Shown one piece after another: positions 35,529-54,200 of a stretch of DNA of 64,000 nucleotides; position 1 is the stretch's first letter; each line of letters opens with the position of its first letter. This DNA is from Draconibacterium sp. (GTDB lineage: Bacteria > Bacteroidota > Bacteroidia > Bacteroidales > Prolixibacteraceae). The notes beneath the pieces are model-generated. The model saw only the letters and a program-made list of their open reading frames with translations. It was not told the origin of the DNA and did not search any database. The DNA lies in the NCBI GenBank assembly GCA_047975435.1, contig JBKEDN010000292.1, positions 18,513-82,512 of the forward strand, given 5' to 3'. Made by a program: the position numbers and the translations under genes.

Positions 35529-36097
35529 ATAAGAAATATTTTTTAGCAGTAAGGGTAAAATGTTTACCATCCCACTATTCCATTCATCTTACAATATGTA
35601 TATCTAAATATTTATATTTCTAGATATCGTCGCAAATATATAAAGGTTTTGGTAGAAGAAAGCTGTCAGTTGATAATTTGAAACCATTAAAAATAAGCAA
35701 TTTAGATCAATTTTAACCAAGAGCAAAATAAAATACATATGATTATTTCAATATATATCTAATACCTGTAAAACAATTGATTACATCACATTATTTGCAT
35801 TATATTTAGTTAAAAACAAAACACCTTTACGTATTTTATTAAGAACAAATGGCACAATAATATCAAAATACTAAACAACATAAGTTCAATAACTAATTAT
35901 TGGGAATATCCTCTAAACCAAAGACATCTAACTCAATTGTACTGTTTGCAGAAGCATAAAAAAAGACAGACGGTTTCAATTTGTTCCAAATTATCTCATA
36001 TTTGCCAAACCAATAGGAGTAGTGTGTCTGCCAAAACAAGATTTAATGATGTTTAATAAAGACACATAATCCGGGTTTCAAACAAAAATATTAGCAG

Positions 36098-36484
36098 ATG
36101 AACAACAGAAGGACATTTCTGAAAATAGCCATTACCGGAATCGTTGCTTTTTTTGTGTTTATCTGGAACAAGCTAACCTTAACCCATTTGGAGGTTTCGC
36201 GGCAAAAAGAAAGTACCCTTCCATTTAATAAGAATAAGGAAGTTTCGTTTGCCGAGCACTATATTATTGTTACACAAAATAATTCCACCACCGTTTTTTC
36301 GGCACATTGCACACACCTGGGGTGCAAAATTGACAAATCGGAAGGCGACCGCCTGGTTTGTCCCTGTCATGGTTCGGAATACGATTTACAGGGAAAAGTA
36401 CAAAAAGGCCCGGCCTACAAAAACCTGGAGGTTTTACCTTCGCGAATTTCTGACGATGGAAAAAATATCATAATCGGAGCCTGA
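36098..36484 (+). CDS. Rieske [2Fe-2S] protein with Tat signal
   Basis: MNNRRTFLKIAITG, then CTHLGCKI ... CPCHGSEY. Confidence 0.85.
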   Translation: MNNRRTFLKIAITGIVAFFVFIWNKLTLTHLEVSRQKESTLPFNKNKEVSFAEHYIIVTQNNSTTVFSAHCTHLGCKIDKSEGDRLVCPCHGSEYDLQGKVQKGPAYKNLEVLPSRISDDGKNIIIGA

Positions 36485-36485
36485 G

Positions 36486-39185
36486 ATGACCAAAAAGAAC
36501 AACAAAACAACCTTTGGCACTTTGGCGCTGGCCATGTTTTGGCTGGTGGTCCTTTCGGGTGTTGCTTTGGCTATTCCGTTCGATGTAAAAAATCCGTACC
36601 TGAGCATCAGCAACATAATGGTTGTCAATCCATGGGCTTCGTTTACCCGGAATTATCATTACTGGAGTTCCCAGTTTTTTCTGATTTTCAGCCTCATCCA
36701 TTTTTACGAGCATTATCATTACAAGGAAAAAATCGGGTTCAAAAAAGGCATTTCGTTTCGTCTGAGTTTAGCGGTGTTGATTATTTTTTTAGCTATGATC
36801 ACAGGCTTTCTGTTAAAGGGCGATGCCGACAGTCAGCAAGCCCAGCAGATACTGCAAACACTTGCAGAACGTTTGCCACTAATTGGAAAATCGCTGGCCT
36901 TTTCATTGTTAGGCGATCCGGAAAGCTACCAGTTGATTTATGTACACCACATTGCCACCTTCACCATTTTTATAACCATTGCCATGGTGGAACACGGTCG
37001 CAAATTCTGGCCTCCGGCATTGGATTTTGTTGCATCGGCAGCAGGGCTTCTCATCTTAAGTTATCTTTTAAGCGCTCCGCTTCACGACAATCTGAACCCG
37101 GCAGTAAAAGGCCCCTGGTACTTTGTAGGTTTTCAGGAAATACTGCACTGGCTCAAACATCCCGAATGGTCGCTTTTGATCTTTCTGGCGGTGCTTGTAT
37201 TGGTTTATCTCGCCAATTCGACAAGAGGCAAAACCATGTTTTTGAGTAAACGATCATTACTTATTTTTGTCGGTTTGTATTCCATCCTCACCATTGTCGG
37301 ACTATTTTTCAGGGGACAGAACTGGAAGTGGACAACACCGTGGAGCCCGGAATACAAATTTGAAGTGCTTCATAATTTCAGAACGCCAAGGGTAAATTTT
37401 TCACCCGATTTTGAATTGAATGAAGCCATTGCATCTCCGGTAATCCAGGGAAGAAAAGAAAGTTGCCTGGCCTGCCACTCCGGAACACATGGTTTTACCG
37501 ATTCGCACCGGGCCGAAGCAATCGGCTGTATTTCCTGTCATGCCGGAAACCCGTTTGCCACGGGAAAAGAGCAGTCGCACCGTAACATGATCCTTATTCC
37601 GGGAAACCTGGCAAGCGCCCGACAGTCGTGCGGGACCACACAATGCCATCCGCAAATTACAGAGCGGGTACCTACCGGATTAATGGCTACTTTAAGTGGC
37701 ATGATCAGCGTAAACCGTTTTGTTTTTAATGAACAGGATAATCCTGATGAACCGGCACATGTCAGCCAGTTAGGGAATTCTGCTGCTGATGAACATTTAC
37801 GAAACCTGTGTGTGCGCTGTCACCTCGGAAATCCCAAAACCGAAGCGGGGCCGGTAAACGAGTTTAGCCGTGGCGGAGGATGTCTGGCCTGTCATTTAAA
37901 CTACAGTGCTGAAGCGGAAAAAGAACTGGCGGAAAACAACGACGAAATCATGCGGGCACATCCTGAAATAAGCCTGAAAATCACGAACAAGCATTGCTTT
38001 GGCTGCCACAGCCGCTCGGGACGGATTTCGACCAATTACGAAGGCTGGCACGAAACCACACTTACCAAAAACGAAATGCCCGACTCGGTGAATTACCGGC
38101 TGATTGAAGATGAACGTGTATTTGTGAAAAAACAGGAAGATGTACACCACAAATTGGGGCTGGAATGCATCGATTGCCATCATTCGTACGAACTGATGGG
38201 CGATGGCAATCATTATGCACACCAGGAAAACCAGCAGGATGTTCAGTGCTCGGATTGCCACATTAACGGGGAGCCGCGGACCATTGCTGCTGAAGATATG
38301 GACAATGAATCGGCGGTTATTGCTGCACTTCGATTTGGAAATATTGCCGGGAAAAAATTATTGTTGACCGAAAAACACAAGCGGGCGCTAATCAACACTT
38401 TTGTGGAAAACGACTCGGTGTATTTTATCACCAAAAACAGCGGTGTGAAAATGACGATGCGGGCGCCGGCAGCAGTTTGTTCCCGAAACGAGGCCCATTC
38501 CAGCCTGGCATGTTCCAGTTGTCACACTTCGTGGGCACCTACCTGTATTGGCTGCCACAATGCTTACGATTCCAACGAACGCGGATACAACATGATTGAA
38601 AACCGGGAGCAAAAAGGCACCTGGGTGGAATACATCGGGCAATACGAGGCCAAACTCCCGACACTGGGCGTTCGAAAGTCAAAAGACAAAACAGAAGTAG
38701 TTCCGGTAATCCCGGGAATGATTATGACCATTGATATGAAATCATATTCAGGCAACGAAAATGATCCCGAAATTTTCCATCGTTTGTTTGCTCCTGCTTC
38801 TCCACACACCACTTCAGCTAAAGGAAGAAGCTGCGTAAGTTGCCACAACGACCCGGTGGCATTGGGCTACGGAGAAGGCGAGCTTAACTATATGATTATA
38901 AACGGAAAAGGAACCTGGGAATTCAGCTCGCAATATGCAGCTGACCCGCACGACGGACTACCGGCCGACGCCTGGATCGACTTCCTGAAAACCCGTACTG
39001 AAAAGGTGGCCACCCGCTCCGATCTTTTCCCTTTCGACGAGCAACAACAGCAACGCATTCTCACTGTGGGCGCTTGTCTTACCTGTCATGATGAGAAATC
39101 GGCTGTGATGCAACAGAGTTTGAATCATTTTGATGAACTTCTCAAAACCCGGAGCCAGCAGTGTATTCTTCCTGAGTGGAAGTAA
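36486..39185 (+). CDS. Cytochrome b (b6 + subunit IV-like) fused to a multiheme cytochrome c
   Basis: The N-terminal TM region has His pairs H-x13-H (NYHYWSSQFFLIFSLIH) and H-x14-H (HHIATFTIFITIAMVEH), plus a PEWY-like GPWYFVGFQEIL. The C-terminal ~600 aa has 11 CxxCH motifs (CLACH, CISCH, CVRCH, CLACH, CFGCH, CIDCH, CSDCH, CSSCH, CIGCH, CVSCH, CLTCH) and one CGTTQCH. Its start is 1 nt after the Rieske stop. Confidence 0.85.
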   Translation: MTKKNNKTTFGTLALAMFWLVVLSGVALAIPFDVKNPYLSISNIMVVNPWASFTRNYHYWSSQFFLIFSLIHFYEHYHYKEKIGFKKGISFRLSLAVLIIFLAMITGFLLKGDADSQQAQQILQTLAERLPLIGKSLAFSLLGDPESYQLIYVHHIATFTIFITIAMVEHGRKFWPPALDFVASAAGLLILSYLLSAPLHDNLNPAVKGPWYFVGFQEILHWLKHPEWSLLIFLAVLVLVYLANSTRGKTMFLSKRSLLIFVGLYSILTIVGLFFRGQNWKWTTPWSPEYKFEVLHNFRTPRVNFSPDFELNEAIASPVIQGRKESCLACHSGTHGFTDSHRAEAIGCISCHAGNPFATGKEQSHRNMILIPGNLASARQSCGTTQCHPQITERVPTGLMATLSGMISVNRFVFNEQDNPDEPAHVSQLGNSAADEHLRNLCVRCHLGNPKTEAGPVNEFSRGGGCLACHLNYSAEAEKELAENNDEIMRAHPEISLKITNKHCFGCHSRSGRISTNYEGWHETTLTKNEMPDSVNYRLIEDERVFVKKQEDVHHKLGLECIDCHHSYELMGDGNHYAHQENQQDVQCSDCHINGEPRTIAAEDMDNESAVIAALRFGNIAGKKLLLTEKHKRALINTFVENDSVYFITKNSGVKMTMRAPAAVCSRNEAHSSLACSSCHTSWAPTCIGCHNAYDSNERGYNMIENREQKGTWVEYIGQYEAKLPTLGVRKSKDKTEVVPVIPGMIMTIDMKSYSGNENDPEIFHRLFAPASPHTTSAKGRSCVSCHNDPVALGYGEGELNYMIINGKGTWEFSSQYAADPHDGLPADAWIDFLKTRTEKVATRSDLFPFDEQQQQRILTVGACLTCHDEKSAVMQQSLNHFDELLKTRSQQCILPEWK

Positions 39186-39223: not shown

Positions 39224-39255
39224 AAAAAAACCTTGAAGATTTTGATTCCTCAAGG
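39224..39255 (-). terminator. Rho-independent terminator after the lipocalin-like gene
   Basis: On the minus strand, accttgagg-aatcaaaat-cttcaaggt is followed by ttttttt. Confidence 0.5.
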
Positions 39256-39308
39256 TCAATAAGTTTATGATATAAACCGAATTTCTGGTAAAACCAAAGA
39301 AAGTCCGC

Positions 39309-39755
39309 TTAATCCATTCGAACATATTTTTCGATGTTGCAATTGTTTTTATCATAATTACCATTTTTGTCAAGTGGAGAAAACAGGTAAACCTGATAAA
39401 GTGTGTCTCCCTTTATTTCGAGATACTGTTGCACTTTCTTTCCCAGAAAGTTGGGAACATTGTGATAGAGCACTTCTTCTGTATAAACATGCCCGGATAA
39501 ATCGTAAGTCCCTCCTCCGTAATTGTTGATAAGTTGCCCACCATTGACACTTTTGCCAACAAACATAAAATATTTATCTGACCAGGTTTTGAGTTGTTCG
39601 CCATTGGCCTGATCCAGGATTGAGATTCTACTTTGTCCGTTTCGGACTAATTCCTGACTGATAAGTTTCCATGTTCCGTTGAGTTTTGTTTTATCGCTTT
39701 TAAAGCTGAAAAGAGCAAAAACTACTGCTAGTAAAATAAGTGTTTTGAGTCTCAT
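39309..39755 (-). CDS. Secreted lipocalin-like small protein (DUF4488-like impression)
   Basis: Signal peptide MRLKTLILLAVVFALFSF, then LNGTWKLIS. The family call is tentative. Confidence 0.5.
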   Translation of the reverse strand: MRLKTLILLAVVFALFSFKSDKTKLNGTWKLISQELVRNGQSRISILDQANGEQLKTWSDKYFMFVGKSVNGGQLINNYGGGTYDLSGHVYTEEVLYHNVPNFLGKKVQQYLEIKGDTLYQVYLFSPLDKNGNYDKNNCNIEKYVRMD

Positions 39756-39852: not shown

Positions 39853-39887
39853 ACAACAAAAAGCAGCCTCCGAAATACAGAGGCTGC
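39853..39887 (-). terminator. Rho-independent terminator closing the efflux operon
   Basis: On the minus strand, gcagcctc-tgtatttcg-gaggctgc is followed by tttttgttgtg. Confidence 0.6.
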
Positions 39888-39960: not shown

Positions 39961-40680
39961 CTAAACAAATTTTTCGCGTTTTTGCAGATTAAACAAACCA
40001 TAGAGAGTAAACACCAACATACCGATTGCAAGGAAAATCCTGTTCTTCCGGATGGTGCCTTCCCAAATTACTTCGTTCAGGTTGTTGGGAATATCAAAAG
40101 GGTTCAGAAAAGGATTCCACTGCATATTCCGAATAGAATCCTGCAAAATCAGTATTGCAACTCCGATAAGTACCATTGTTACAGCAGTTCCGTTACCATT
40201 TTTTACCACTGTGGAAAACATAAATGCCATGGATCCAAGAAAAACGATCGGAAACATTAACTGATACGCCATCTCCATTATATTCACTTTGTATAACAAT
40301 ACGGAGGCTAAACCCGAGAACAAACCGATAATTAAAAATACCAGTGTGTAAATCATTACCAACCGTACCAGCCATACTTTGTACCGGTAATTAGGTATTC
40401 CAAACAGAATTTCGAGCATCCGGGAATCGTCATCGTTTTGAATCCCGAAAACTGACGGATAAAAGATGAGCAATATTCCGGGAAAAATCAGCAATTCATA
40501 AACTGTTCCATCGGTAATTGTATTGTTTTCCAATACCCGGGTAACGGCAACAAAAAGGAAAAATGCCAAAGCTGCCAGCAAAAACCAGATAAAGCGGTTT
40601 GCAAAAATGATCTTCAGATTGTAACGGATCATCTTAATCAGGATAAATAACCTGTTTTTTATATTGAATTTTGAAGCCAT
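39961..40680 (-). CDS. ABC-2 type membrane permease
   Basis: About 6 hydrophobic helices. Start trimmed to MASKFNIK (ATG 40680), 1 nt after the stop of the RND-ABC fusion gene. Confidence 0.6.
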   Translation of the reverse strand: MASKFNIKNRLFILIKMIRYNLKIIFANRFIWFLLAALAFFLFVAVTRVLENNTITDGTVYELLIFPGILLIFYPSVFGIQNDDDSRMLEILFGIPNYRYKVWLVRLVMIYTLVFLIIGLFSGLASVLLYKVNIMEMAYQLMFPIVFLGSMAFMFSTVVKNGNGTAVTMVLIGVAILILQDSIRNMQWNPFLNPFDIPNNLNEVIWEGTIRKNRIFLAIGMLVFTLYGLFNLQKREKFV

Positions 40681-40681
40681 T

Positions 40682-43600
40682 TTAAACAAAATCTTTAAGT
40701 AAGCATAAATAAGCATCTTCCAGATGAGGAGAAACATTTACCGCATCGGGGGTTGGTTTGTCTTTTGCCAGGCAGCGGACTTTTATATTTTCTCCGTCGC
40801 GCATGTGGTGAACAATCATTTGCTTATTGGCCATGTTATCAAATTCTTTTGCCGGAACCGAAAATTGCCATACAAATTTGTTTCCCATATTAACCATATC
40901 GCTAGGTGTCCCGAAATACTTCAGGTCTCCACGGTTAATTACGGCAACCTGGTTACATGAGCTCGAAATATCTTCGATAATATGCGTTGAGAAGATTACA
41001 ATTCTCTCGCGGCTGAGTTCTACCAAAAGGTTACGGAAACGGATACGTTCGCGCGGGTCGAGGCCAGCTGTTGGCTCATCAACAACCAAAATACGCGGCA
41101 AATTCAATAATATTTGTGCAATTCCGATTCGTTGTTTCATACCCCCTGAGAAGGATCCGATTTTATCATTCCGGCGTTCGTACATATGCACGTTTTTCAG
41201 TACATAGTCCAAACGCTCGTTTCTTACTTTGGTATCCTTTATTCCTTTTAGGATTGCCTGGTAATCGAGAAATTCCCATGCCGACATGTTTTCGTAAGTT
41301 CCGAAAGCCTGTGGCAGATAGCCGATCAATCCCTGCAACTCCTCCCGATACTTTTGTGTATCAAGTCCGTTGATCCAGATTTTCCCGTAGCTCTGTTCCA
41401 GAATACCAGTAATAATTCGCATCATGGTTGATTTTCCGGCCCCGTTTGGCCCCAGTAGCCCAAACATTCCGGTTTTTATTTCAAGCGAAACTCCGTTTAG
41501 CGCCCTGAAAGGTTTCTTACGTTTACCAACCACCGGTATCTGGCGTATCATTGTAAAATAGGCACGGCGCAAACCACCAAGCCGTCCTTCAATACGGGCA
41601 ATGTTCAGGTTCTTTTTCTGAATGTATTCGGCCGAGCTGTAAATAATCAGCAGGATGTACCAGATGATACCTACAAAAATCACCATTCCGAGGTTATCCC
41701 AGTTTTTGAAGAAAACGAAAAGAAAGACTGCCGGAACTCCCCAGAAAATCAGGTTATAAATCCACTTGTTCAATTTCAGGTACAGGTTTTTCCCACTTGC
41801 TTCGTGTTTATTAATAAGCACCTGCTGTACCGGAATCCGTAAGAACATAAGAAAGAAAAATACACCATGAGAAAGAATCCACATCCAAAGCCCGCTTTCC
41901 AGGTAAAAGAATGTAAAATAGACCAGGAATCCGAAAAGAGGCAGTTGCCAAACCATATCGTAAAAATCGCGCAGATGTTTGTAATCGTTTGTTAATCCGG
42001 CACGTTCCCTTATTTTAATTCCCGATTTCCACTCGCGAACAAAACGAGAGTCGCGGTCATAAATCTTTACCAGTTTTTGTACTTTGATCCGGATTGGCTC
42101 ATTTTCGTCGATTACCTTTTCATTGGCTTGGCGAAGGCTTGTCATTACAAATGCAACAACACCCGGCACCAGAATAATGAGGAGCATAAAATCGAGTAAT
42201 TGCCAGAGAAAACTATCTACTTCGAAGTAAACCAGCACTGCACCAACAACAAAAACAGTCAGCATTCCGGCCTTTAAACCCCAATGCAACGATTTTATCC
42301 AGTTTAGCGAATTTTCAAGCCCTGCATAAAGCGTTGGAATAAACACCAGTGTAAGTATTGTACTTAACGAAAGGCCCCCAATTACGGTAATGGCAAACGG
42401 TGCCCCAATAGCGCCAACATATTCAGCCTGTCCCATTGCCAGCGGGAATAAAGCTACAATGGTTGTAATGGCGGTAATAAGAATCGGGCGTACACGCGAA
42501 AGTCCTGCTGTCATTAATGCCCTTGACTTTCGGAAGCCACGTTTTCGAAGAATATTGGTATAATCGATCAGTATAATACCATTGTTTACCACCACCCCAA
42601 TCAGAATAATAAAACCCATTAAAGTGTTGGCATTGAAAAGACTGTTCCCGGTAAAAATAAGTGCCAGGAAAGAACCGATGGCTGCCAGCGGAATCGAGAA
42701 CATCAGTACAAATGGTGTTGAAAGCGATTCGAAAACCGAAGCCAGAATCATCAGGATCAGAATAAAGGCGGCGGCAATCAGAAATTTGAATTCGGAGTAC
42801 TGGTCTTCTTCATGTATAACCTGTACCGCCACTCCCGGAGGCAATTTGTATGCCCCGATAATGTCGTCGATTTCAAGCCGGTAAGCCTCCAGCAGATCTT
42901 TTGAATCTTCTGCTTCACTCACAAAACGGTAATTCAGTTCGATCTGTTTTTCCTGGTTTACACGTGTTATACTGGCCATTCCCTGGGCATATACCAGGTC
43001 TGCCAGGTCCTGCAATTCATAAGTGGCCCCCTGGTTATTACTAATTTGCAGGCGGCGCAAGTCTTCAATTCCTTTTTGCGAATTATCTTCTTCTTCCTCC
43101 CCTTCCGGAAGCTTCTCCTTTATTACAATTTCATATTCTTCTGTTCCTTGTTTGAAATTTACTCCCGAAGTAAATTCACTTGTAAAAGTTCGAAGGTCGG
43201 ATGAGATATTATTTAGTGTAACTCCGTATTCAGTAAGTAAAAGCTGATTAAAAAAGAGGTGCACTTCGGGCCGGTTCCGCGATACACTCACATTGGCCCG
43301 GCGGATTGATTCGAGATCTTCGATGTAATAAAGCAAATCTTCAGCAACGCCTTTCATTACGTCAAAGTTTTCTCCTTTGATAACAATGCGTTCCTGGTTA
43401 CTTCCAATTCCCATAAACTGGGCAAATCCCTGTGATCCGGAGCGTCCTCCTCCGCCACCACCTCCGCCACCGCGGAAACTGGAGCTGGAAGTAGGCGCCT
43501 CCAGGCTAATCTCTGCCTGTGAAATACCTTTTACACGATCTTCCACATCTTTCTTTATTTCGGCAATGCTACGGTCGTCAATGTCTTTGTAATCGTCCAC

Positions 43601-45415
43601 CAGAATAAAGGTCAGAATTGCTTCTTCTTCCTCAATCTTTGAAATCAGGTCTTTCTTTTCCTTTACATCTTCCAACCGGCTTTCCACCTCGGCAACAACC
43701 TTGTCGGTTGCTTCGAGTGTTGAACCGGTGGGCATGGTAACATACACCGAGAATTGTGTTTCTTCCACTTCGCTCAGGTTGTTTACACTTACTGCCAGCA
43801 CAATAAATACGGTTAGGAAGAATACAACGATTGCCCCGATAATGGTTTTTCCCGGAACACGCATACTTGCTTTCAGTAATAAAATGTAAATCTGAATGAT
43901 GCGGTTATTCGTCGTTACTTTCTCGTAAAATATGTTGTGCTGCCGTTTGCCTTTTAAGAGCAAATGTGCGCCCATTGGTATTAGCAACAGGGCAACAAAC
44001 AGCGAAACCATGAGCGTTGAAATAATGGAAACCCCCACATGATTTCCCAGCAGTTTTACCATGTAATCGGTAGAGAATACAAAAGGCAGAAAAACAGTGA
44101 TGGTGGTAAGCGTAGCAGCTAAAATAGAACGCCATACTTCCTGAGTTCCCTGTGTAACAGACTTTTCGGGGCTCATGTGATTCCCCGATAAGCGATAAAT
44201 GTTCTCCAGTACCACAACACTGTTGTCGAGCAGCATCCCGATTGCCAAAACCAAGCCTACCAGTGTTAAGCTGTTCAGCGAAATATTAAAAGCATAAAAC
44301 AGGTTGAAGGCAGTAAAAACCGAGATGGGCATTGCCAGCGCAATAAACGATACAATTCGCATGTTTTTGAGGAACATCCACAAAACAAAAATTGCAAGTA
44401 AACCACCCACCAATGCCAGGTTAATAATCTGATCGATATTTTTCTCCATCGTTTCGGCCAGGTTAGTTTGCACTACAATCTCCACATCTTTTGATGCCAG
44501 CTTTTCATTCAATGCCGCTATCTGGTCCTGTACTTTATGCGACAAATCGATAAGATTGGCCTGCGAGTCGCTTACCAATAACATCGAAACCGCATCGAGC
44601 CCGTTTATACGACTAATGGAAGTCTCTTCCTTTACACCAAAAAACACATCGGCAACATCTTTTAAAAAGATCGGACCGTCGGCCACCACAATATTTTCGA
44701 TGTCTGAAACATTGTCGTACTCTGCCGTTACATGTACAAAGTATTTCTTATCCGACTCGTGCAAATAACCTGCAAAAGTGCGGTTTTGCGAGTTTCCGGA
44801 AATAGCACTACTAATTTGCGCCGGGGTGATTCCGTAGGCTTCGCAGGCAGCAGCATCGTAGGTAACTTCTATCGAGCGCTCTTTCCCTCCGTAAACCGAA
44901 ACAGAGGCTACTCCGTCAACATTTTCGATTTCTGAAGTTATTTCCTGGTCAACAATATTACGAACGCGGTCAACACCACCACTCCCTCGAACCTGCAATT
45001 CCATAAACTGGTTGGTGAGTTGCTCAATATCCACTTTGTTAACCACCACAACAAAATTATCGTCAAGACTGGCACTTGCCATGTCAATCTTTTCCTGCAA
45101 TTTCAGGAATGTATATTTAAAGTTGACGTTTTGTTTGAAATTAACCTGAATGGAAGCCGACTGATTATTAATAAACGACTCCATGCTTTCAATGCCTTCC
45201 ATGGTGCCAATGGCACCTTCAATCGGGATCACTGCCTGGTTTTCCATGTATTTTGGATCTACCTGGGTGCGCGACTGAATCTGCACATAAAGCATGGGCA
45301 GTTCGGCATTGGGCATTAATTCCACCGGAAGCCTTTTATAGGAGATATAACCAAGCATGGTTAACCCTAAAAAGAGCATACTGATGAATATTTTTCTATG
45401 TATGATGAATTTCAT
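40682..45415 (-). CDS. RND (AcrB-type) efflux permease covalently fused to an ABC transporter ATP-binding domain
   Basis: Single 1577-aa ORF. The N-terminal ~1075 aa have RND topology and the TM4 motif IGMLLDNSVVVLENI. The C-terminal part has Walker A GLLGPNGAGKST, a Q-loop (YLPQ), the signature FSGGMKQR, Walker B LVVDEPTAGLD and an H-loop (FSTHII). Confidence 0.85.
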   Translation of the reverse strand: MKFIIHRKIFISMLFLGLTMLGYISYKRLPVELMPNAELPMLYVQIQSRTQVDPKYMENQAVIPIEGAIGTMEGIESMESFINNQSASIQVNFKQNVNFKYTFLKLQEKIDMASASLDDNFVVVVNKVDIEQLTNQFMELQVRGSGGVDRVRNIVDQEITSEIENVDGVASVSVYGGKERSIEVTYDAAACEAYGITPAQISSAISGNSQNRTFAGYLHESDKKYFVHVTAEYDNVSDIENIVVADGPIFLKDVADVFFGVKEETSISRINGLDAVSMLLVSDSQANLIDLSHKVQDQIAALNEKLASKDVEIVVQTNLAETMEKNIDQIINLALVGGLLAIFVLWMFLKNMRIVSFIALAMPISVFTAFNLFYAFNISLNSLTLVGLVLAIGMLLDNSVVVLENIYRLSGNHMSPEKSVTQGTQEVWRSILAATLTTITVFLPFVFSTDYMVKLLGNHVGVSIISTLMVSLFVALLLIPMGAHLLLKGKRQHNIFYEKVTTNNRIIQIYILLLKASMRVPGKTIIGAIVVFFLTVFIVLAVSVNNLSEVEETQFSVYVTMPTGSTLEATDKVVAEVESRLEDVKEKKDLISKIEEEEAILTFILVDDYKDIDDRSIAEIKKDVEDRVKGISQAEISLEAPTSSSSFRGGGGGGGGGRSGSQGFAQFMGIGSNQERIVIKGENFDVMKGVAEDLLYYIEDLESIRRANVSVSRNRPEVHLFFNQLLLTEYGVTLNNISSDLRTFTSEFTSGVNFKQGTEEYEIVIKEKLPEGEEEEDNSQKGIEDLRRLQISNNQGATYELQDLADLVYAQGMASITRVNQEKQIELNYRFVSEAEDSKDLLEAYRLEIDDIIGAYKLPPGVAVQVIHEEDQYSEFKFLIAAAFILILMILASVFESLSTPFVLMFSIPLAAIGSFLALIFTGNSLFNANTLMGFIILIGVVVNNGIILIDYTNILRKRGFRKSRALMTAGLSRVRPILITAITTIVALFPLAMGQAEYVGAIGAPFAITVIGGLSLSTILTLVFIPTLYAGLENSLNWIKSLHWGLKAGMLTVFVVGAVLVYFEVDSFLWQLLDFMLLIILVPGVVAFVMTSLRQANEKVIDENEPIRIKVQKLVKIYDRDSRFVREWKSGIKIRERAGLTNDYKHLRDFYDMVWQLPLFGFLVYFTFFYLESGLWMWILSHGVFFFLMFLRIPVQQVLINKHEASGKNLYLKLNKWIYNLIFWGVPAVFLFVFFKNWDNLGMVIFVGIIWYILLIIYSSAEYIQKKNLNIARIEGRLGGLRRAYFTMIRQIPVVGKRKKPFRALNGVSLEIKTGMFGLLGPNGAGKSTMMRIITGILEQSYGKIWINGLDTQKYREELQGLIGYLPQAFGTYENMSAWEFLDYQAILKGIKDTKVRNERLDYVLKNVHMYERRNDKIGSFSGGMKQRIGIAQILLNLPRILVVDEPTAGLDPRERIRFRNLLVELSRERIVIFSTHIIEDISSSCNQVAVINRGDLKYFGTPSDMVNMGNKFVWQFSVPAKEFDNMANKQMIVHHMRDGENIKVRCLAKDKPTPDAVNVSPHLEDAYLCLLKDFV

Positions 45416-45481: not shown

Positions 45482-48400
45482 CTATTCAGTAACTTCGGCC
45501 GCCGGTCTATCTTCCGGCTTTACAAACATTTCCCTTACGCGGTCGAGCACATCGTACACACAAGGAATTACAACCAATGTTAACAGCGTTGATGTAACCA
45601 AACCTCCTACAACTGCCAGGGCCATTGGTGAGCGCAACGAGGCGCTTTCGCCAAAACCAACTGTAAGCGGTAGCAAAGCAAGAATAGTGGTTAAACTGGT
45701 CATGATAATTGGGCGGATACGTTGTTGCCCCGCCTGCAGGATTGCCTGTACACGGTCCATTCCGTCTTTTCGCAACTGGTTAATCCGGTCCACCAAAATA
45801 ATGGAGTCGTTTACCGCTATCCCCACCAGCATAATCACCCCAATAATTGCCATTATATTGATGGTTTTCCCGAGGATGAAAAAGATGAGGATTGTTCCTA
45901 CAACCGCAAGTGGAATGGTAAGCAGAATTGTAAACGGATGTATCAGCGACTCGAACTGGGAAGCCAACACCATATACACCAAAATAATTGACAACAGAAG
46001 CGCAAAGGCCAGGTTATCCAGCGATTCCTGTCTTTTTTCTTCTTCACCGGTTACCATAATCCGATAATTGGGCTGTAAGTCGATACCGGCAGTAGCTTCT
46101 CGAATTTCTTTTGAAACATGGTCGAGTGCAAAGCCATTCTCCATCTGAGCAGTTACTTTTCCCAGCCGGTTTTGGTTTCTGCGAATAATTTCTTTAGGCG
46201 AAACACCGTAAGAAATATCGGCGATTTCATTTAAACGAAATACCTGATCGCCCGAGGTGATAAGAAATGAATTTATCTCATCAATCCCTTTTTCGGGAAC
46301 CTTAATGGTAATGTCCTGCATTTCGCCGTTTCTTTCCAGTTCACCGGCTTCTTTTCCTTCCAGTTGTTCCTGTATTTGGCTGATAACGGTAGCGATGTTG
46401 ATCCCGTAAATTCCGGCACGCATCCTGTCCACTTTTATTTCCACTTCCGGCGCGCCGTCTTCAATCGATGTTTTTATGTTGAAAAGACCATTGATTCCCT
46501 GCATTTTTTCTTTTACCTGGTTCACAACGCTTTCAATTTCATCCATTTCTTCACCCCGTACTTCTACAACCACCGGAGCATCTTCTGTTCCCAGTATGGA
46601 TTGTAGCGCACTCTCTTCCTGAGAGAAACTAAGTTCCAGCCCTTCGATATTGGCGGTAAGATTATCGAGTGTTTTTACAATACTTTCGGTAGATACTGTG
46701 GCATCGTTTTTCAGAATAACTTTTAATTCTGCCGTATTTTCACCCTGGAAAACAGTACTTGCATCGCCTGTAATTCCGGTTGACGGGCCTGCCTGCGAAT
46801 ATATCGTTGCCAGATTTTCACCCAGATAATCGATCAGTATATTCTCAATATTTTTAACGGTTGACTCCGTACGTTCCAGTTTTGTACCCTCCTGCAATTT
46901 CAATTCAACCGTTAACTCGCGGGTTTCGGTTTTTGGCATAAACTCGGTCCCGATAAATGGAATCAGCAAGGCCGATGCGGCTATTGAAGCAGTTGTAATA
47001 ATAATAACCAACCATTTTGCTTTTAGTACTTTTTCGAGAAAACGCCCGTAACCTCCCATTTTTATGGATTTGGCCTTTAGAGGCGCTTTTTTGTTCCGGT
47101 AAAAACGATGGTACATCATCGGTATCAGAAAAATGGCAACTACCAGCGACGAGATCAAAGAGAAAGCTACTGTCCATGCCTGGTCTTTAAATAATTCGCC
47201 CGATGCACCGTGCAGATATACGATGGGCAGGAATACAATAATGGTAGTAAGTGTTGATGCGGTAATTGCTCCTCCCACCTGTGCTGTTCCGGAAATGGCC
47301 GCTTCGCGCACACTCATCCCGTTTTCGTGGTTTCGGAAGATATTCTCCATAACAACAATGGCGTTATCTACCAGCATACCGGCGCCCAGTGCAAGCCCGC
47401 CCAAAGTCATAATATTGATGGTGAGGTGGTTAAAGTACATCAGGTTGAAAGTGGCAATAATCGATATCGGAATTGCAACACTTACAATTAATGTGGTTCC
47501 AACTCTTCTCAGGAAAAGGAAAAGAATAAAAACTGCCAATAAAATACCGATGAGTGCTGTTTCCTGCACTTCGCCGATGGCGCTGCTGATAAAACGTCCC
47601 TGGTTGGTTACCACCGTTAGTTTATAACCGGGCAATGCTTTTTCGATGGAAACCAAAGCTTCGTTGATCTGCTCCACCGATTTTACGGTATTGTATTTTG
47701 TTTCTTTAAAGATTGACAGGCCCACACAGCGTTCTCCGTTAATGTGTACAATGTTGGTGGGCTTTTTATTTCCTACATAAACCCGGGCTACATCTTTCAA
47801 ATAAACCGGGGCCATCTCACTGCTTGAATTTTGCCCGGTTGTTTCACTTGAAACAGCTTTGTAGCCTACAATCAGGTTTTCAAAATCTTCGATCGACTGC
47901 AACATCGAAACCCCTTTTACAATGTATTGGGTTCCCATATCAGTAATACGGCCTCCGGAAACATTCCGGTTGAAATTCTCAATCCGGCTCGAAACTTCGT
48001 CCATCGTAAGTCCCTGTGCTTCTAAACGATACGCATCGGTTTCAATAATTATTTCGCTTTCTTCCTGGCCCGATAGTTCTACTTCGGCAACACCTTCCAA
48101 ACGCACCAATTCGTTACGGATGTAGTTTTCGGCTACCTTCCGTATTTCATTCATATCGGTAATTTCATTGTGTGTAAGGCCAATGAGCATCACCGGAGTA
48201 GTATTCGGGTCGTGTTGGGTAATCTTCAGTTCGTCTATTTCTGAATTTTGGGTAAGTGTATTCAGCGCTTTTTGCAGGTCGAGAAAAGCCTCGTCCATAT
48301 CTTTGTTCCATGCATATTCCACGGTAATTTGTGCCGAGCCAACGCGCGAAACGGAAGTTACCTGAATCACATCAGACTGGCGGATTGCCAAGGCTTCGAT

Positions 48401-48601
48401 GTTCTCCACAAACTGTTTTTCCATTTCTTCGGGCGGCCTTTCACCCGAAGTCACTTCCACAAAAATGCGGGGAGAATTCAGGTCCGGGAAAAGGTCAACT
48501 CCCAGTTTATCGTACGAAATATAGCCCAGGAGTACAACTCCCAATACTACCATCAGCACGGTAACCGGATAGTTAACAGAAAATTGAGTTAATTTCTTCA
48601 T
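45482..48601 (-). CDS. RND (AcrB/AcrD/AcrF family) efflux permease
   Basis: 1039 aa with 12-TM RND architecture and the TM4 motif GAGMLVDNAIVVMENI. Confidence 0.92.
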   Translation of the reverse strand: MKKLTQFSVNYPVTVLMVVLGVVLLGYISYDKLGVDLFPDLNSPRIFVEVTSGERPPEEMEKQFVENIEALAIRQSDVIQVTSVSRVGSAQITVEYAWNKDMDEAFLDLQKALNTLTQNSEIDELKITQHDPNTTPVMLIGLTHNEITDMNEIRKVAENYIRNELVRLEGVAEVELSGQEESEIIIETDAYRLEAQGLTMDEVSSRIENFNRNVSGGRITDMGTQYIVKGVSMLQSIEDFENLIVGYKAVSSETTGQNSSSEMAPVYLKDVARVYVGNKKPTNIVHINGERCVGLSIFKETKYNTVKSVEQINEALVSIEKALPGYKLTVVTNQGRFISSAIGEVQETALIGILLAVFILFLFLRRVGTTLIVSVAIPISIIATFNLMYFNHLTINIMTLGGLALGAGMLVDNAIVVMENIFRNHENGMSVREAAISGTAQVGGAITASTLTTIIVFLPIVYLHGASGELFKDQAWTVAFSLISSLVVAIFLIPMMYHRFYRNKKAPLKAKSIKMGGYGRFLEKVLKAKWLVIIITTASIAASALLIPFIGTEFMPKTETRELTVELKLQEGTKLERTESTVKNIENILIDYLGENLATIYSQAGPSTGITGDASTVFQGENTAELKVILKNDATVSTESIVKTLDNLTANIEGLELSFSQEESALQSILGTEDAPVVVEVRGEEMDEIESVVNQVKEKMQGINGLFNIKTSIEDGAPEVEIKVDRMRAGIYGINIATVISQIQEQLEGKEAGELERNGEMQDITIKVPEKGIDEINSFLITSGDQVFRLNEIADISYGVSPKEIIRRNQNRLGKVTAQMENGFALDHVSKEIREATAGIDLQPNYRIMVTGEEEKRQESLDNLAFALLLSIILVYMVLASQFESLIHPFTILLTIPLAVVGTILIFFILGKTINIMAIIGVIMLVGIAVNDSIILVDRINQLRKDGMDRVQAILQAGQQRIRPIIMTSLTTILALLPLTVGFGESASLRSPMALAVVGGLVTSTLLTLVVIPCVYDVLDRVREMFVKPEDRPAAEVTE

Positions 48602-48672: not shown

Positions 48673-49749
48673 TTATAAAATCACTTTTACTTTCGAGTTA
48701 TCGCGGAGTGTTTCGTAGCCTTTAATGATCAAACGATCGTTTGGAGCAAGTCCTTCCACAATCTCAATTTCATCCTGGTTGGAAATTCCGGTGGTAATAC
48801 GGCGGTCGTCGGCAGAACTGTTGCGGCCAACTACAAAAACATATTTTCCGCGCGAACCCGACATGATTATATTTTTTGGAATAACGACTACACTGTCTTT
48901 TTGTGCTGTAATAATGTTTGCTTTTATAAACATTCCCGGACGAAGTTTCAATTCCGGATTATCGATCTGCAGTTTTCCGGCAAAGGTGCGTGTTTCGTCG
49001 CTGATTACCGGCGACAATTCGCTAACGTGCCCCTGTAAAGTATCTTCGGTGAGGGTGTAATTGGTGATCAGCACATTCTGTCCCACTTCTATTTCTGATA
49101 TATTTTTTTCCGGAAGATTTATTTCCACGTACATCTGGTCGTAACTCATCAGTTTTACCATCGATTGTCCCGATGCAACACGTACACCTTCAGTATAATA
49201 TGGGAGTTCAACAATAACCCCGGCAAAAGGAGCAACAACCTTCATTTTGGCCAACTGAATCTGAGCATTCTCGTAACTGTTTTGTGCATCGATCGACGAA
49301 ACTTCCGAATTTCTCAACTCGCGAAGCGTAACACCGCCTTTTTCGTACAGCGATTTTTGTTTGTCGTATTCCTGCTGAGAAATTTCAAGATTGAGTTTTT
49401 TCGATTCGAGCGAAAGTCCGTTCAGGTACTCTTCATTTTCGAATTTAATAATCGCCTGTCCTTTTTCAACACGGTCGCCTAATTTGAATTTACGCCCAGT
49501 TTTGGGGTTCACCTGCAATTTATAATCTCCCTGAATTTCGGAAGTAAGTTCGGTTTCCGACTTTGCTTTGGCAGTACCCGTGGTAGTTATAAATTGCTGA
49601 ATGCTTTTTAACTTGATACCCTCAACTGAAACCGGAACAGCAAGGTCGCTGCTCTCAGACGATGGCTGATTGTTACACGAAATGGCGCTTACAACAATAA
49701 AAGCCAGGTAAAGTAATTTTATATTCTTCATTTTTCTACGTTTTTTCAA
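48673..49749 (-). CDS. Efflux periplasmic adaptor (membrane fusion protein), lipoprotein
   Basis: Lipobox VVSAISC, a coiled-coil hairpin region, and position between the TolC-like and RND genes. The start may be the internal MKNIKLL (ATG 49731). Confidence 0.88.
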   Translation of the reverse strand: MKKRRKMKNIKLLYLAFIVVSAISCNNQPSSESSDLAVPVSVEGIKLKSIQQFITTTGTAKAKSETELTSEIQGDYKLQVNPKTGRKFKLGDRVEKGQAIIKFENEEYLNGLSLESKKLNLEISQQEYDKQKSLYEKGGVTLRELRNSEVSSIDAQNSYENAQIQLAKMKVVAPFAGVIVELPYYTEGVRVASGQSMVKLMSYDQMYVEINLPEKNISEIEVGQNVLITNYTLTEDTLQGHVSELSPVISDETRTFAGKLQIDNPELKLRPGMFIKANIITAQKDSVVVIPKNIIMSGSRGKYVFVVGRNSSADDRRITTGISNQDEIEIVEGLAPNDRLIIKGYETLRDNSKVKVIL

Positions 49750-49752
49750 TGG

Positions 49753-51258
49753 TTATTTTTTGTTCTCGGTGAGATAAAGTTCGGCGGGTAAAATTCGTTC
49801 TCCTTTTTCAAAATCGTACAACGACTGGATTTTCAGGTTTAGCAATTCAATTTTATAATTGATAAGCGCCTGGCTAAAAGAGATCTTTTTTTCCGACAAC
49901 TGTGTTTGATACAGATTCAAATCCATACCGGTCAGGTCGCCGTTTTCGTAACGCTCCAGGTTAATCTCGTAGGTTAACTGTGCGTTGCGTTCGTTTTGCT
50001 TGGCAATATCAATTTGTGTTAGCTGGTTTTGTAAGTTGCGATACACCTGGCGTATATCAACAACAATCTGCTTTTTCTCTTCCGAAAGGTTGAGTTCCTG
50101 CGAACGGATCGATGCTTCGGCAGCGGCAATACGTGCTTTCTTTTCTCCCCAGTCGAAAATCGGGATATTAAAGCTCACACCTACCGACGGGCTTTTGGTT
50201 GGGTTTTGGTAAATATTACCCAGCTTTTTGTTGTCGCCGGTAATCCCGAAACGCAGGTTCATTTCACCTTTAAATTCGTTTAAGGCTTTGGTTTCAATTA
50301 AGCTGAACTGACTATTTTCCACATCAATTTCGCGCTGACGAAGTTCCATCCTCGAATCCAGTCCGTTTTGAATAGCCAGGTCGAGATCAATTTTTACAGG
50401 ATTGGCACTGATGTCGGTCAGAATCATAATATCCTGGTACAAATCCATACCCAGGTAAAGCTTTAACTGATCTTTGGCATTTTCGAAACTTACCTCATCG
50501 TTTTGTACACTCGATTTGGCCGTTGAAAGGTTCAACTCTGCCTGGTATTGTTCTTCTTTGGCCGCTAATCCTGCATTTACTTTATTAACAATAATATCGT
50601 AGCTTTTCTGGGTATTTGTAAGCTCTTCTTTTGCAATGTTCAGGTTCATTTGCGCCATGTAAACATTGTAGAAATACTGGGTTACATTTCGCTCCAGGTT
50701 TAATCGCTGAATGGCATAACTGATGTTGGCATTTTCAAGGTTCAACTCCAGTTGTTTGAGCTCCATCTTTAAACGGTTATAGGTAAAAAGCGGCTGATTC
50801 AGGTTCAAATACAGGTTGTTAAAAAATACTTCGCTCCTGTTTTCGTCGGCAGAAAGGGTTGACTTACTGCTCGACCAGCCAAACTCGTTGGTAAGAGAGA
50901 TGGTTCCATCGGTTGGAAGAATAGGTTGAGAAATGGTAAACAAGGTGTTTGACTCAATATTCTCGTTGGTGTACCATTCCGAAAAACGGCTGTCGAACCG
51001 GCGTTGGTTACTGTAGTTTACCGGATTTACTTCGAGCGAGAACCGTGATTTTAATGCTGCACGCTGTGCTTCCAAACTCTTCTGATAGCGCTCCAGGTTT
51101 AGCAACGAAAGTTGAAGGTCGGGGCTGCCCGTTTCGGCTATACTCAAAGCTTTTGCAAGGGTAAGCGCTTCCTGCGCCCGGCTTGTAAAAACACTCGTTG
51201 CCAGAAACAGCAGCAAAAGAATGATTTTCTGAAATTGTTTAATTTTGATTTTTTTCAT
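49753..51258 (-). CDS. TolC family outer membrane efflux protein
   Basis: About 500 aa with duplicated coiled-coil repeats and a signal peptide. Start trimmed to MKKIKIKQF (ATG 51258) to avoid overlap with the upstream gene. Confidence 0.85.
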   Translation of the reverse strand: MKKIKIKQFQKIILLLLFLATSVFTSRAQEALTLAKALSIAETGSPDLQLSLLNLERYQKSLEAQRAALKSRFSLEVNPVNYSNQRRFDSRFSEWYTNENIESNTLFTISQPILPTDGTISLTNEFGWSSSKSTLSADENRSEVFFNNLYLNLNQPLFTYNRLKMELKQLELNLENANISYAIQRLNLERNVTQYFYNVYMAQMNLNIAKEELTNTQKSYDIIVNKVNAGLAAKEEQYQAELNLSTAKSSVQNDEVSFENAKDQLKLYLGMDLYQDIMILTDISANPVKIDLDLAIQNGLDSRMELRQREIDVENSQFSLIETKALNEFKGEMNLRFGITGDNKKLGNIYQNPTKSPSVGVSFNIPIFDWGEKKARIAAAEASIRSQELNLSEEKKQIVVDIRQVYRNLQNQLTQIDIAKQNERNAQLTYEINLERYENGDLTGMDLNLYQTQLSEKKISFSQALINYKIELLNLKIQSLYDFEKGERILPAELYLTENKK

Positions 51259-51280
51259 TTCTATGCTTGATTTAATTGAC

Positions 51281-54200
51281 TTACTGTTCAACAATTTTCA
51301 CCGCATCGGCAAACACCATTCTTAGCTGTGATTTATTTGTTAATTCAATTTTTGCGGTGTCGGGCGAAAAATAAAAGGTTCCCAAATGGTTCCAGCCCGC
51401 CTCGGCATTTTGATAATCCAGTGCAGCTTCTTCCGTTCCGTCGTCGGCGTGAATATTAAAATTGTAGTTTCCTTTTTCCTCATTCCGGTCGCGGCCACGC
51501 ATCCGTGTTTTATACAAATGAAAATACACATCGTAATAGCCTGCTTTTGCAACCGGCACATTCCATGTTGCCACCTGGTCGCCTTCACCACCTTTTATGT
51601 AATATCCCGAGCGGATGTACTCACCATAAAATTCGTCGTTTGTTACGGCAGTCCAACTGGTATTTGGCCTCCACCAGTTAACTCCCTGGTATCTGCGGGT
51701 TTGCTCTTTTTCTTTCACAATCAGCTTTTCGAGTAAACTTACCTGCTCGTTCCTGGTAACCGAGAATTCGGGATCTTCGTTATCTACCACTATTTCGTTT
51801 GGCAGTTTAAACTGAACCGGTACATCGGTAACAAGCTCTTTTTCTTCGGGCCTTGCTTTTGGATCTTCCTCAATCTCGCGGAAAAACTCCATCATGGTTT
51901 GCGGAATATTTTTCGAGGTCATAGTATTGATTATAACCATTCTTGGGTCTCCTTCAAAAAGGTAACTCAAATCTTTGGTTTGATGTGCTTCGAGGAAAAC
52001 AAGTTTGGTGATCGCATCGTCGCTACCGCCGCCCCGGGGGCCAAAACCTCCGCCTCCTCCCAGTCGGAACGTAAGTTTTACCATTCCATCCACATCCGAA
52101 AAGTTGGTTATTTTGGTACTGATCATTGTTTGCATGGCTTCACCACTTTTAGCCTTTACCGCCTTTACCGGGGCAATTAAATAACCCGGAAGCGATTTGG
52201 CTTTAAACCAGTCGTCCATAATCGGCACCAGCTGAATACCAAAAGCTTCGTTAATTTGCTTGTCAAATTCTTCAAAACTAATGTTCTTGAATTTGTTCTC
52301 AGCCAGAATTTTGCGCAGAAAATCTTCAAATTCGGTTTGCCCGGCCTTCCACTGTATCTGTGAGAAAAGTACATCACCTTTTAACTTAATAACATTGTCA
52401 ACAATATCTTGCTGATCCGGATCGGCCAGTACCTGTTCAAAAGTTTCGTCCTGCAGCGCAATATTGGCCAGCACATCTTCACTTTCACCATTCATATTCC
52501 CCATAAAGATGGAGCGCATATCAAGGTTTTGGCTTTTCAGGTAGGCTTCAAATACCCGGTTGGTAATTGGCCATCTGTCAGATTGGATATTGTTTTGAAA
52601 GTTGTATAGCATCGGGAAAATGTAATACGGGTTTCCCGTCTGTTGTACGGTCATTTCTCCCCTTCTGAAATTGCGGTTATCTTCCGTTTCCTCGGTAAAC
52701 TTTCTAAGAAATCCGTGCAACGACTGAATCTCTTTATCCTGATCGGTCATGTCATTTCCTCTTCCGCCCGGGCCGCCCCAGCGCCCCATAAATTCTTTTT
52801 GTTTTTTGAAGTCGGCTTCACGCATCATAAAACCTTTTTCGGCAATAAAAACCTGTTCGGGCTGAACTGCCTCCTGAATTGATGACCACATGCGACCATA
52901 GGTTTTAAACTGGGCCGGAACTTCTACAACTGACAGCCTTTTTTCGCTAAACTCCAGGTTATAGGTTCTTACAAAATCTTCGAAGCGCTCTTTTATAACC
53001 GCCGGAATTGTATCTTTTGACTCTTTAAACTCTTGCGAAAAATAATCGTGCCCGTCAATATACCAAAGGCCGAATTCTACCTTATCCCCTTCTATTTTCT
53101 TTTGTTTGTAATTCCCAATGGTTAGTGAAACCTGTGTTAGCGGATTTTCATTTTCAAAATTAAATTCTCCGGCCGAAACTTCGTTGATTACTCCCTGCGA
53201 TATCGCTTTCAGTCCGGGTGTTGTTTTTACTTTCAGTTCAAAACGGGTAAACTGTGGCTGATGCCAGCTCACATTCGTTGAACTATAGGTAACACCTGCT
53301 TTGGGATACCAGTTTGCCTCTTTGGTGAGCAACACGTATTCGGGCTCAATAAAAGCATAACGCTTGTCAACATTCAGCACAAACTTTCCATATTTTTGCA
53401 TCCGGGTTTCTTCGTCAATATCAAGGTAGCAGTAGGTTTCATCGATCGATCCTGAATAAGTAAAATCAATCAAGGTACTGTCGCCGGGCAATAGATTTAT
53501 TTTGTCAGAAATAATTACAAGTTGTTTGTCGCGCAGAAACGGCGTTGTTGTTCCGTTTATTTTAAGGTCCGAAATATCAAGCCCGCCGTTCAAACTAAAT
53601 ATCAGCTTATGAATGGGCTTTTTCGTATCGTTTAAAACCTTCATGTCAGAGCTCACCTCAATCGTTTTTCCTTTATGCGTAACATTTAATGCATTTGAAA
53701 CGACCGAAACTGAGGGCTCACTTACATATTTATTGTTGAGTTCAACAACCTCGCCCCTTATTTTCTCTGCATTTTTAAAATAATGAATATGATTAAATGC
53801 CAGGTAACCGGCACTACCAATAAAAATAACACCAAAGATTAACGAAAACCAGGTCATTGATTCGGATTGTGGCAGCCTTTTCAGCAGAAATATGGTTAGA
53901 AAAATAAAGCCGGCACCAAGTCCAAAATAGATTCCGCGATGGGCCAGAATTACCGCCAGGTTACCAAATCCAACTATATCGGAGCTCAACATCGGGATGT
54001 TAAAAGCCATATAATCGAAGATGTAGTAAAACTTATCCTGAATAAGAAAGAGGGTTATTCCGATGTAGCCAAGCACCAGTACAAATGTGATGGCTTGGTT
54101 GCGGATTAAAATCATAAACAGAAACGACAAGCCCATAATAAAAACCAGTGTAGGCACACTGATCAAAAGCAGATAAAATACATAGGCTGCCCAGTTTACA

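Follow-up and report, generated by a model that had tools for sequence, protein, structure and literature searches.

The textbook account of efflux in Gram-negative bacteria has proton-driven engines, the resistance-nodulation-division (RND) permeases, and ATP-driven ones, the ATP-binding cassette (ABC) transporters. Can the two engines be parts of one machine? This question is raised by a gene on the minus strand of a 64,000-nucleotide stretch of DNA from Draconibacterium sp. (contig JBKEDN010000292.1, positions 18,513 to 82,512 of the forward strand; the whole stretch is referred to as the window), which encodes an RND permease and an ABC nucleotide-binding domain (NBD) in a single protein. 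We found the same fusion in distantly related bacteria, and we consider it about an even bet that an ABC-2 module, with the fused ATPase as its engine, is anchored covalently to a proton-driven RND pump, the two together constituting a two-engine, two-stage efflux machine.

The fusion gene and its conservation

The gene and its RND domain are located as follows:

40682..45415, minus strand: RND::NBD fusion gene, a single open reading frame (ORF) with ACR_tran and ABC_tran domains and with collinear homologues down to 26% identity
42317..45415, minus strand: RND permease domain (residues 1-1033), matching Pfam ACR_tran, with 12 transmembrane (TM) helices and two large periplasmic loops

An initial annotation of the window, which was made from the sequence alone, had described an uninterrupted ORF of 1577 amino acids that combines a complete AcrB-type permease with a complete NBD. 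This description was confirmed. The ORF consists of 1577 codons and a stop codon without any interruption. A search of its translation with the Pfam hidden Markov models assigned residues 2-1031 to ACR_tran (E 2.2e-164, model positions 3-1018 of 1021) and detected ABC_tran in the C-terminal part at residues 1306-1450 (E 1.6e-27, model positions 1-137 of 137, i.e. at full length). The match to the RND model begins at residue 2, which corresponds to model position 3, and this identifies the first ATG as the correct start. Hydropathy agrees with the 12 membrane helices and the two periplasmic loops of a permease that covers the family model from end to end, and among solved chains, that of MdtB (9lyq_B, E 9.5e-60) comes closest to the fused domain.

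The fusion cannot be explained by a lost stop codon or a frameshift that joined two genes in the assembly. Among 5.8 billion proteins, we found at least 120 protein clusters with 78-94% identity and lengths of 1518-1580 amino acids, all of which contain both Pfam domains, and complete genomes of Maribellus and Draconibacterium are represented among these clusters. An exhaustive search of 50%-identity representatives with residues 1032-1577 as the query identified fusions that are collinear with the whole fusion of the window. These are referred to as class A, and they comprise at least 27 representatives of 1550-1601 amino acids with identities down to 26-29%. Judged by source names and contig labels, class A is present in at least five phyla, namely Bacteroidota (Prolixibacteraceae, Cyclobacteriaceae, Rikenellaceae and a Bacteroidales metagenome-assembled genome), Latescibacterota, KSB1, Acidobacteriota and Gammaproteobacteria (Microbulbifer and OM182). 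A scan of contigs with the full C-terminal alignment, which includes generic ATPase motifs, returned mostly ordinary ABC ATPases and one fusion (L009). The search of protein databases for the combined architecture, which the initial annotation had proposed, revealed the same layout in several phyla, along with conserved neighbouring genes. As independent clusters, including those from complete genomes, and distant phyla all read through the junction in the same frame, a collapsed stop codon or frameshift is ruled out. The sequence of the linker is itself conserved. We therefore rejected the view of the gene as an assembly artefact or pseudogene, to which we attach a negligible probability, and regard the fusion, on account of its conservation, as genuine and ancient.

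The C-terminal ATPase and the RND proton relay

The ATPase retains a Walker A motif (GPNGAGKST), a Q-loop, the signature FSGGMKQR, a Walker B motif (VVDEPTAGLD) and an H-loop (STH). Residues K1328, Q1369, S1423-G1425, D1446, E1447 and H1478 show no variation among 37 aligned homologues with identities down to 27%, and this invariance of the catalytic residues argues for an ATPase that is active and under selection. The best NCBIfam matches of the ATPase were to GldA (174.6 bits, cut-off 402.6) and DrrA (167.2 bits, cut-off 312.45), both far below the equivalog cut-offs, and the closest solved sequences are the NBDs of the ABCA family and NosF. An AlphaFold2 model of residues 1032-1577 (mean predicted local distance difference test score (pLDDT) 86.8, predicted template modelling score 0.70) had TM_1403 (4yer), NosF, LptB and the ABCA NBDs as its best structural matches in Foldseek. 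By its best matches, the fused NBD would belong to the DrrA/GldA/ABCA class, which is the class of ABC-2 systems.

Hydropathy and the AlphaFold2 model agree on the order of the elements that follow the RND domain:

42125..42286, minus strand: two-helix membrane hairpin after RND TM12 (residues ~1044-1097), from hydropathy; modelled helices at 1045-1065 and 1069-1094; conserved across class A
42050..42100, minus strand: first beta strand and A-loop of the NBD (residues 1106-1122, IRIKVQKLVKIY), from a strand assigned by DSSP to residues 1110-1119 of the model and from conservation
41516..42049, minus strand: four-membrane-helix insertion inside the NBD (residues 1123-1300), from hydropathy; modelled helices at 1148-1171, 1175-1207, 1211-1238 and 1242-1267
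40685..41515, minus strand: NBD core and C-terminal domain (residues 1301-1577), from Pfam ABC_tran; K1328, Q1369, SGG 1423-1425, D1446/E1447 and H1478

The layout of two helices, a short strand and four further helices had been recognised in the initial annotation, and it is upheld. What had been missed is the identity of the strand. The whole of class A shares its pattern, I.I.nL.KiYg, with an invariant K1117 and a nearly invariant Y1119 of the A-loop type. Moreover, as DSSP assigns residues 1110-1119 of the model as a strand, which requires a pairing strand, and as all other strands belong to the ATPase, this strand is predicted to pair with the NBD sheet. Lastly, when residues 1123-1300 were spliced out, the alignment with the free ATPase A1, which is encoded further upstream, extended from residue 1 of the latter (VQIRIENLNKIY), with 40% identity over 291 residues, and residues 1106-1122 became aligned with residues 1-13 of A1. 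Because the strand is conserved, is paired according to DSSP and aligns with the start of A1, both sequence and model identify IRIKVQKLVKIY as the ATPase's own first strand, and the NBD as a domain that is interrupted by four membrane helices. The NBD is accordingly non-contiguous: between its first strand with Y1119 and its next strand lies an insertion of 178 residues that includes the four helices. To our knowledge there is no precedent for an ATPase domain interrupted by four membrane helices, and no search aimed at one was made. The insertion is absent from A1.

In a MAFFT alignment with E. coli AcrB, the proton-relay residues of the fusion and of the unfused partner RND permease encoded next to it were read as follows:

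AcrB D407: D397 in the fusion, D412 in the partner RND
AcrB D408: N398 in the fusion, N413 in the partner RND
AcrB K940: N944 in the fusion, N931 in the partner RND
AcrB R971: R974 in the fusion, R961 in the partner RND
AcrB T978: T981 in the fusion, T968 in the partner RND

The AcrB-type relay is therefore incomplete, the DD pair of TM4 being DN and K940 of TM10 being replaced by Asn, with R971 and T978 of TM11 kept. This agrees with the by-eye reading of DN and N in both proteins that had been reported for the window. The same DN/N pattern was present in all fused and partner RNDs examined, and both lineages keep the Asp of TM4 and the Arg of TM11. The initial annotation had taken the pattern to mean that coupling to the proton-motive force may be atypical; the pattern is not tied to the fusion. 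Among unfused relatives from Firmicutes, an RND of Acetoanaerobium (L094 replicon) has DN and NN, and an RND of Brevibacillus encoded beside an adaptor gene (L092 plasmid) has DF and NN; an unfused Agrobacterium relative has DD and K. We therefore rejected the DN/N relay as a mark of proton-coupling loss through the fusion. Since the TM4 Asp and TM11 Arg are kept and the pattern also occurs in ordinary unfused RNDs, the simplest reading is that a reduced relay probably still couples the RND part to the proton gradient.

The five best PDB alignments to the TM4 region of the partner RND all have DD in every chain. As far as these alignments go, the relay variant with a single TM4 Asp and Asn for K940 appears to lack a structural model.

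Partner genes in class A and class B loci

The fusion gene lies within an operon, and with the regulator gene upstream of it the order on the minus strand is TetR regulator, A1, P1, TolC-like factor, adaptor, partner RND, fusion, P2 and hairpin:

55833..56435, minus strand: TetR-family regulator of 200 amino acids upstream of the operon (Pfam TetR_N, E 8.9e-15), with a putative role in the operon suggested by its position only
54634..55527, minus strand: A1, free ABC ATPase of 297 amino acids, paralogue of the fused NBD
51281..54622, minus strand: P1, large membrane protein of 1113 amino acids with about seven N-terminal helices (ABC-2-like), an M1-peptidase-like region and Golvesin_C
49753..51294, minus strand: outer-membrane factor (TolC-like) of 513 amino acids (Pfam OEP, E 1.1e-44)
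48673..49749, minus strand: periplasmic adaptor (membrane fusion protein) of 358 amino acids (TIGR01730 RND_mfp, E 7e-56, above the cut-off)
45482..48601, minus strand: partner RND permease, unfused, 1039 amino acids (Pfam ACR_tran, E 7e-223), 29% identical to the fused RND domain
39961..40680, minus strand: P2, small six-helix ABC-2 family permease of 239 amino acids, starting 1 nucleotide past the stop codon of the fusion
39863..39887, minus strand: terminator-like hairpin of 10 pairs (7 G-C) with a T run, a consensus match only and the probable end of the operon

In the initial annotation of this locus, the free ATPase paralogue, the large ABC-2 permease and the presence of a separate, co-inherited clade of partner RNDs had been missed. 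A1 and the fused NBD share 41% identity over 272 amino acids, including the C-terminal domain. The fusion (434 bits) and the partner RND (623.8 bits) both score under the cut-off of the NCBIfam model RND_permease_2 (1250 bits).

P2, which is annotated as hypothetical, had been claimed to be an ABC-2 permease. In the window the support for this claim is a weak match to ABC2_membrane_3 in Pfam (E 2e-4, 21 bits against a cut-off of 31.6), which is backed by three of five P2 orthologues that match ABC2_membrane_2 with a best E-value of 5.8e-8; the 243-residue P2 of locus L096 matches the same family with E <= 1e-5. Five diverse P2 sequences, used as a profile, retrieved only close Prolixibacteraceae relatives, and a direct comparison of P2 with P1 was not significant (E 0.047). 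P1 has weak matches to ABC2_membrane_2 (E 8.6e-5) and Peptidase_M1 (E 4.6e-5), both below the Pfam cut-offs. Its extracytoplasmic region comprises about 820 residues, and neither HExxH nor GxMEN was found in the M1-like region. Homologues of P1 are encoded in loci L002 (E 1e-18) and L007 (E 4e-6, a distant homologue of 902 amino acids), and P1 adjoins the free ATPase in four phyla.

The fused RND domain contains a run of nine glycines in its periplasmic part (residues 649-657, positions 43445..43471), of which the family consensus keeps GGGG. Five glycines in a similar FR-GGGGG context are present at residues 855-859 of P1 (52046..52060), and there are none in the partner RND.

The product of the gene downstream of the fusion is 100% identical to a protein from a Draconibacterium sp. 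metagenome-assembled genome, in line with the origin of the window. The gene set is conserved well beyond Draconibacterium. P2 directly follows the fusion in all nine class A loci (including L004, L009 and L096), with stop and start codons that are adjacent or overlap. In the loci of Microbulbifer (L002), a Maribellus-like contig (L003), Latescibacterota (L005) and Acidobacteriota (L095), the genes for A1, P1, the adaptor, the partner RND, the fusion and P2 occur in precisely this order, and a partner RND is encoded in nearly all loci. The class A fusion is thus part of a conserved six- to seven-gene system, which often includes the outer-membrane channel. In Microbulbifer sp. (L002, 1-20075), the whole module from the free ATPase to P2 is flanked by genes for non-ribosomal peptide synthetases, and this location hints that the module may export a secondary metabolite.

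A second group of RND::NBD fusions, class B, emerged from the same search of 50%-identity representatives and comprises proteins of 1344-1451 amino acids in which a soluble linker, without extra helices, leads from the RND domain to the ATPase:

Class B proteins: P0167, P0185, P0186, P0193, P0205, P0208, P0211, P0213 and P0256
Class B loci: L006-L008 and L089-L091

The four-helix insertion is absent from these fusions, and in P0256 the ATPase domain is uninterrupted. Part or all of the class A partner set is kept in four of the six class B loci examined. Three of them (L007, L089 and L090) contain the class A parts list in a different gene order: the small P2-like permease, which was found in three of the six loci, comes after the free ATPase, and a P1-like protein is encoded just before the fusion in L007 and L090. 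Profile comparison (hhalign probability 95%) established homology to P2 for the small permeases of L090 and L089; a BLASTP comparison of the window P2 with the small permease of L007 was not significant. The parts list common to both classes, as displayed by the window, L002, L003, L005 and L095 for class A and by L007, L089 and L090 for class B, therefore consists of a free ATPase, a small permease, a P1-like protein, an adaptor, an RND and an RND::NBD fusion, with or without an outer-membrane factor. In a neighbour-joining tree of RND domains, calculated without support values, all fused RNDs of both classes grouped together and apart from all unfused partner RNDs. This grouping suggests that there was one old fusion and that the helices were inserted later.

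Other genes in the vicinity of the operon are the following:

39309..39755, minus strand: ORF of 148 amino acids just downstream of the operon terminator, without a match to any Pfam or NCBIfam family, and with its own terminator-like hairpin at 39257..39229
36098..39185, plus strand: gene for a Rieske protein, followed by that for an 899-residue protein with a cytochrome b domain and multihaem cytochrome c domains
33273..35570, minus strand: molybdopterin oxidoreductase with a twin-arginine translocation signal, on the strand opposite to the Rieske gene

Possible modes of action and known relatives

How might these parts work together? In the RND-anchored ABC-2 module that we favour, the six extra helices would hold the ATPase at the membrane, two of them preceding its first strand and four being inserted after it. 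The fused ATPase would work with P2 and, in most lineages, also with A1 and P1 to form the ABC-2 module, and the RND pump would consist of the fused RND, the partner RND, one adaptor and the outer-membrane channel. The ATP-driven module would first move or extract a substrate from the cytoplasm or the inner leaflet to the periplasmic face, from which the proton-driven RND stage would subsequently expel it via the adaptor and the outer-membrane duct. The fusion, its split and intact ATPase, the retained Asp/Arg core of the RND relay and the conserved gene set are matters of observation; that there is one physical complex, with a particular stoichiometry, in which the substrate is handed over, is what we infer.

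Tethering of an ABC-2 ATPase is favoured because P2 accompanies the fusion in each of the nine class A loci and because the NBD is catalytically intact and appears to be of the DrrA/GldA class. Of the two readings that the initial annotation had offered, the tethering of the downstream permease's ATPase to the RND is therefore preferred, and no positive support was obtained for ATP-gated RND transport. One complex is favoured over two fixed pairs because the ATPase and permease genes have exchanged neighbours between the two classes. That ATPases, ABC-2 membrane proteins and RNDs are all present in duplicate points in the same direction, as do the two co-inherited RND clades, which would be expected of a long-standing hetero-oligomer.

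Several observations weigh against this view. Locus L096 (10001-15534) contains only a class A fusion of 1601 amino acids and its ABC-2 permease, and no adaptor, partner RND, free ATPase or P1 was found within 10 kb. Likewise, the class B fusions of L006 and L008 stand alone, with no ABC permease in view. These three loci indicate that the large gene set is not obligatory and that the ATPase of class B may not need an ABC membrane domain to act. The AlphaFold2 model of P2 (pLDDT 56) was too poor for use, and the Foldseek search with the C-terminal model, in which only ATPase domains were matched, revealed no convincing ABC membrane-domain counterpart of the six extra helices. The tree that separates the two RND clades has no support values. 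Lastly, an RND trimer and an NBD dimer differ in symmetry, a mismatch that would be resolved by a 2:1 heterotrimer like MdtB2C or by the pairing of one fused ATPase with A1.

It is conceivable that the fused ATPase instead gates or powers the RND cycle through TM12 and the attached helices, adding to the proton gradient or replacing it, and that P2 and the other ABC parts are accessories. This would fit with the class B proteins, in which the ATPase is joined straight to TM12 without extra helices, with the two loci that lack a nearby ABC permease, and with the lack of the AcrB-type D408 and K940 in both RND lineages, DN being present in none of the five best PDB alignments mentioned above. 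However, ordinary unfused RNDs without any ATPase share DN/N, and the TM4 Asp and TM11 Arg are conserved, so that there is no sign of a proton-coupling loss caused by the fusion. In addition, the constancy of P2 in class A and the P2-like permeases in half of the class B loci would be difficult to understand, as would the apparent membership of the ATPase in a class that normally docks on ABC-2 permeases, and the three ATPase domains of a homotrimer cannot all dimerise. We therefore consider direct ATP control of the RND unlikely. A more specific form, in which ATPase domains dimerise under an RND hetero-oligomer and drive or license its cycle, with P2 and the six helices as the transmission element, strikes us as less probable still; if true, it would represent the first RND pump for which ATP is an energy source, either the only one or one that acts alongside the proton gradient.

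Alternatively, the fusion could merely ensure the co-expression or fixed ratio of two independent machines. Domain fusions often reflect functional association only, and the ABC-2 module might move the periplasmic domain of P1 by mechanotransmission, as in NosDFY or MacB. The size of the extracytoplasmic region of P1, with its Golvesin_C and an M1-like part devoid of catalytic motifs, the presence of NosF and other ABC-2 ATPases among the structural neighbours, and the different gene orders of the two classes are all compatible with this possibility. It is less readily reconciled with a fusion that persists to 26% identity and in two linker forms, or with the conservation of an elaborate six-helix tether in class A. 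Moreover, since L096 keeps the fusion and P2 without P1, P1 cannot be the sole target. Mere co-localisation thus seems rather improbable to us, and the anchored ABC-2 module remains the reading that we prefer.

A covalent hybrid that is conserved with fixed partner genes in at least five phyla implies that a single machine can draw on both energy sources. As a natural system, it would lend itself to the study of how a substrate is passed on from a transporter that faces the cytoplasm to an RND pump that faces the periplasm, of whether the RND cycle can be regulated by ATP, and of the fitting of a trimeric to a dimeric engine. An NBD interrupted by four membrane helices is, furthermore, an unusual protein architecture in itself.

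In the literature, ABC, RND and major facilitator superfamily transporters are listed as alternative inner-membrane engines of tripartite pumps, and RND heterotrimers are called rare (PMC8277102). The claim in the initial annotation that no RND-NBD fusion has been characterised is in agreement with the full-text literature that was searched, which excludes most subscription journals, and in which we found no description of an RND-ABC fusion; neither the main review of tripartite pumps (PMC8277102) nor a paper on transporter genomics (PMC3924187) contains one. The architecture is visible in automatic annotation, for example as 'AcrB/ABC-type multidrug transport system ATPase subunit' of the Joint Genome Institute (JGI).

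Like the AcrAB-TolC and other HAE-1 pumps, the system described here has a full 12-helix RND with two periplasmic loops and adjacent genes for an adaptor and a TolC-like factor, and the fusion keeps the TM4 Asp and the TM11 Arg and Thr of AcrB. Unlike AcrB, it carries a C-terminal extension of 545 residues with six helices and an ABC ATPase, it has Asn at the D408 and K940 equivalents, and a second RND gene adjoins. This last feature is reminiscent of E. coli MdtABC, the permease of which is MdtB2C: here, too, a single adaptor gene is followed by two paralogous RND genes (window, L002, L003, L005, L095 and L089), MdtB is the nearest solved chain to the fused RND, and in the neighbour-joining tree the fused and partner RNDs form distinct, co-inherited clades. 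However, MdtB and MdtC have no ATPase and the identity is low, and a heterotrimer of fused and partner RNDs would be putative.

The ATPase side resembles the ABC-2 type V systems DrrAB, NosFY, GldAFG and YbhFSR in having an ATPase that, by its best matches, would be of the GldA/DrrA/NosF class, with a six-helix permease encoded directly after it, and the second ATPase and second, larger permease of the fusion operon are as found in hetero-oligomeric ABC-2 systems. In none of these four is the ATPase attached to an RND and split by four membrane helices. MacAB-TolC likewise combines an ABC ATPase, an adaptor and an outer-membrane factor in an envelope-spanning efflux system, but in MacB the ATPase is N-terminal and shares its chain with four helices and a periplasmic domain, whereas the system described here has an RND permease as its periplasmic machinery and ABC membrane parts of the ABC-2 type; the match between the two in Foldseek (5lj9) covers the ATPase domain only. 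By domain description, P1 can be likened to the functionally uncharacterised family 3.A.1.145 of the Transporter Classification, an ABC-2/M1-peptidase fusion represented by Q1D520 of M. xanthus (PMC3924187), in which an ABC-2-like membrane domain also precedes an M1-peptidase-like region. P1 differs in lacking the zinc-site HExxH and the GxMEN motif and in its added Golvesin_C.

A precedent for a secondary carrier that is joined by an ATPase is ArsAB, where the carrier ArsB is made ATP-driven by ArsA, so that two modes of energisation exist. The two partners of ArsAB belong to families unrelated to those of the fusion, are not covalently joined and have no outer-membrane duct. The RND, the ABC-2 ATPase, the ABC-2 permease, the adaptor and the outer-membrane factor are each of a known kind, and the architecture has been annotated yet unstudied; it is their combination that is of no known kind.

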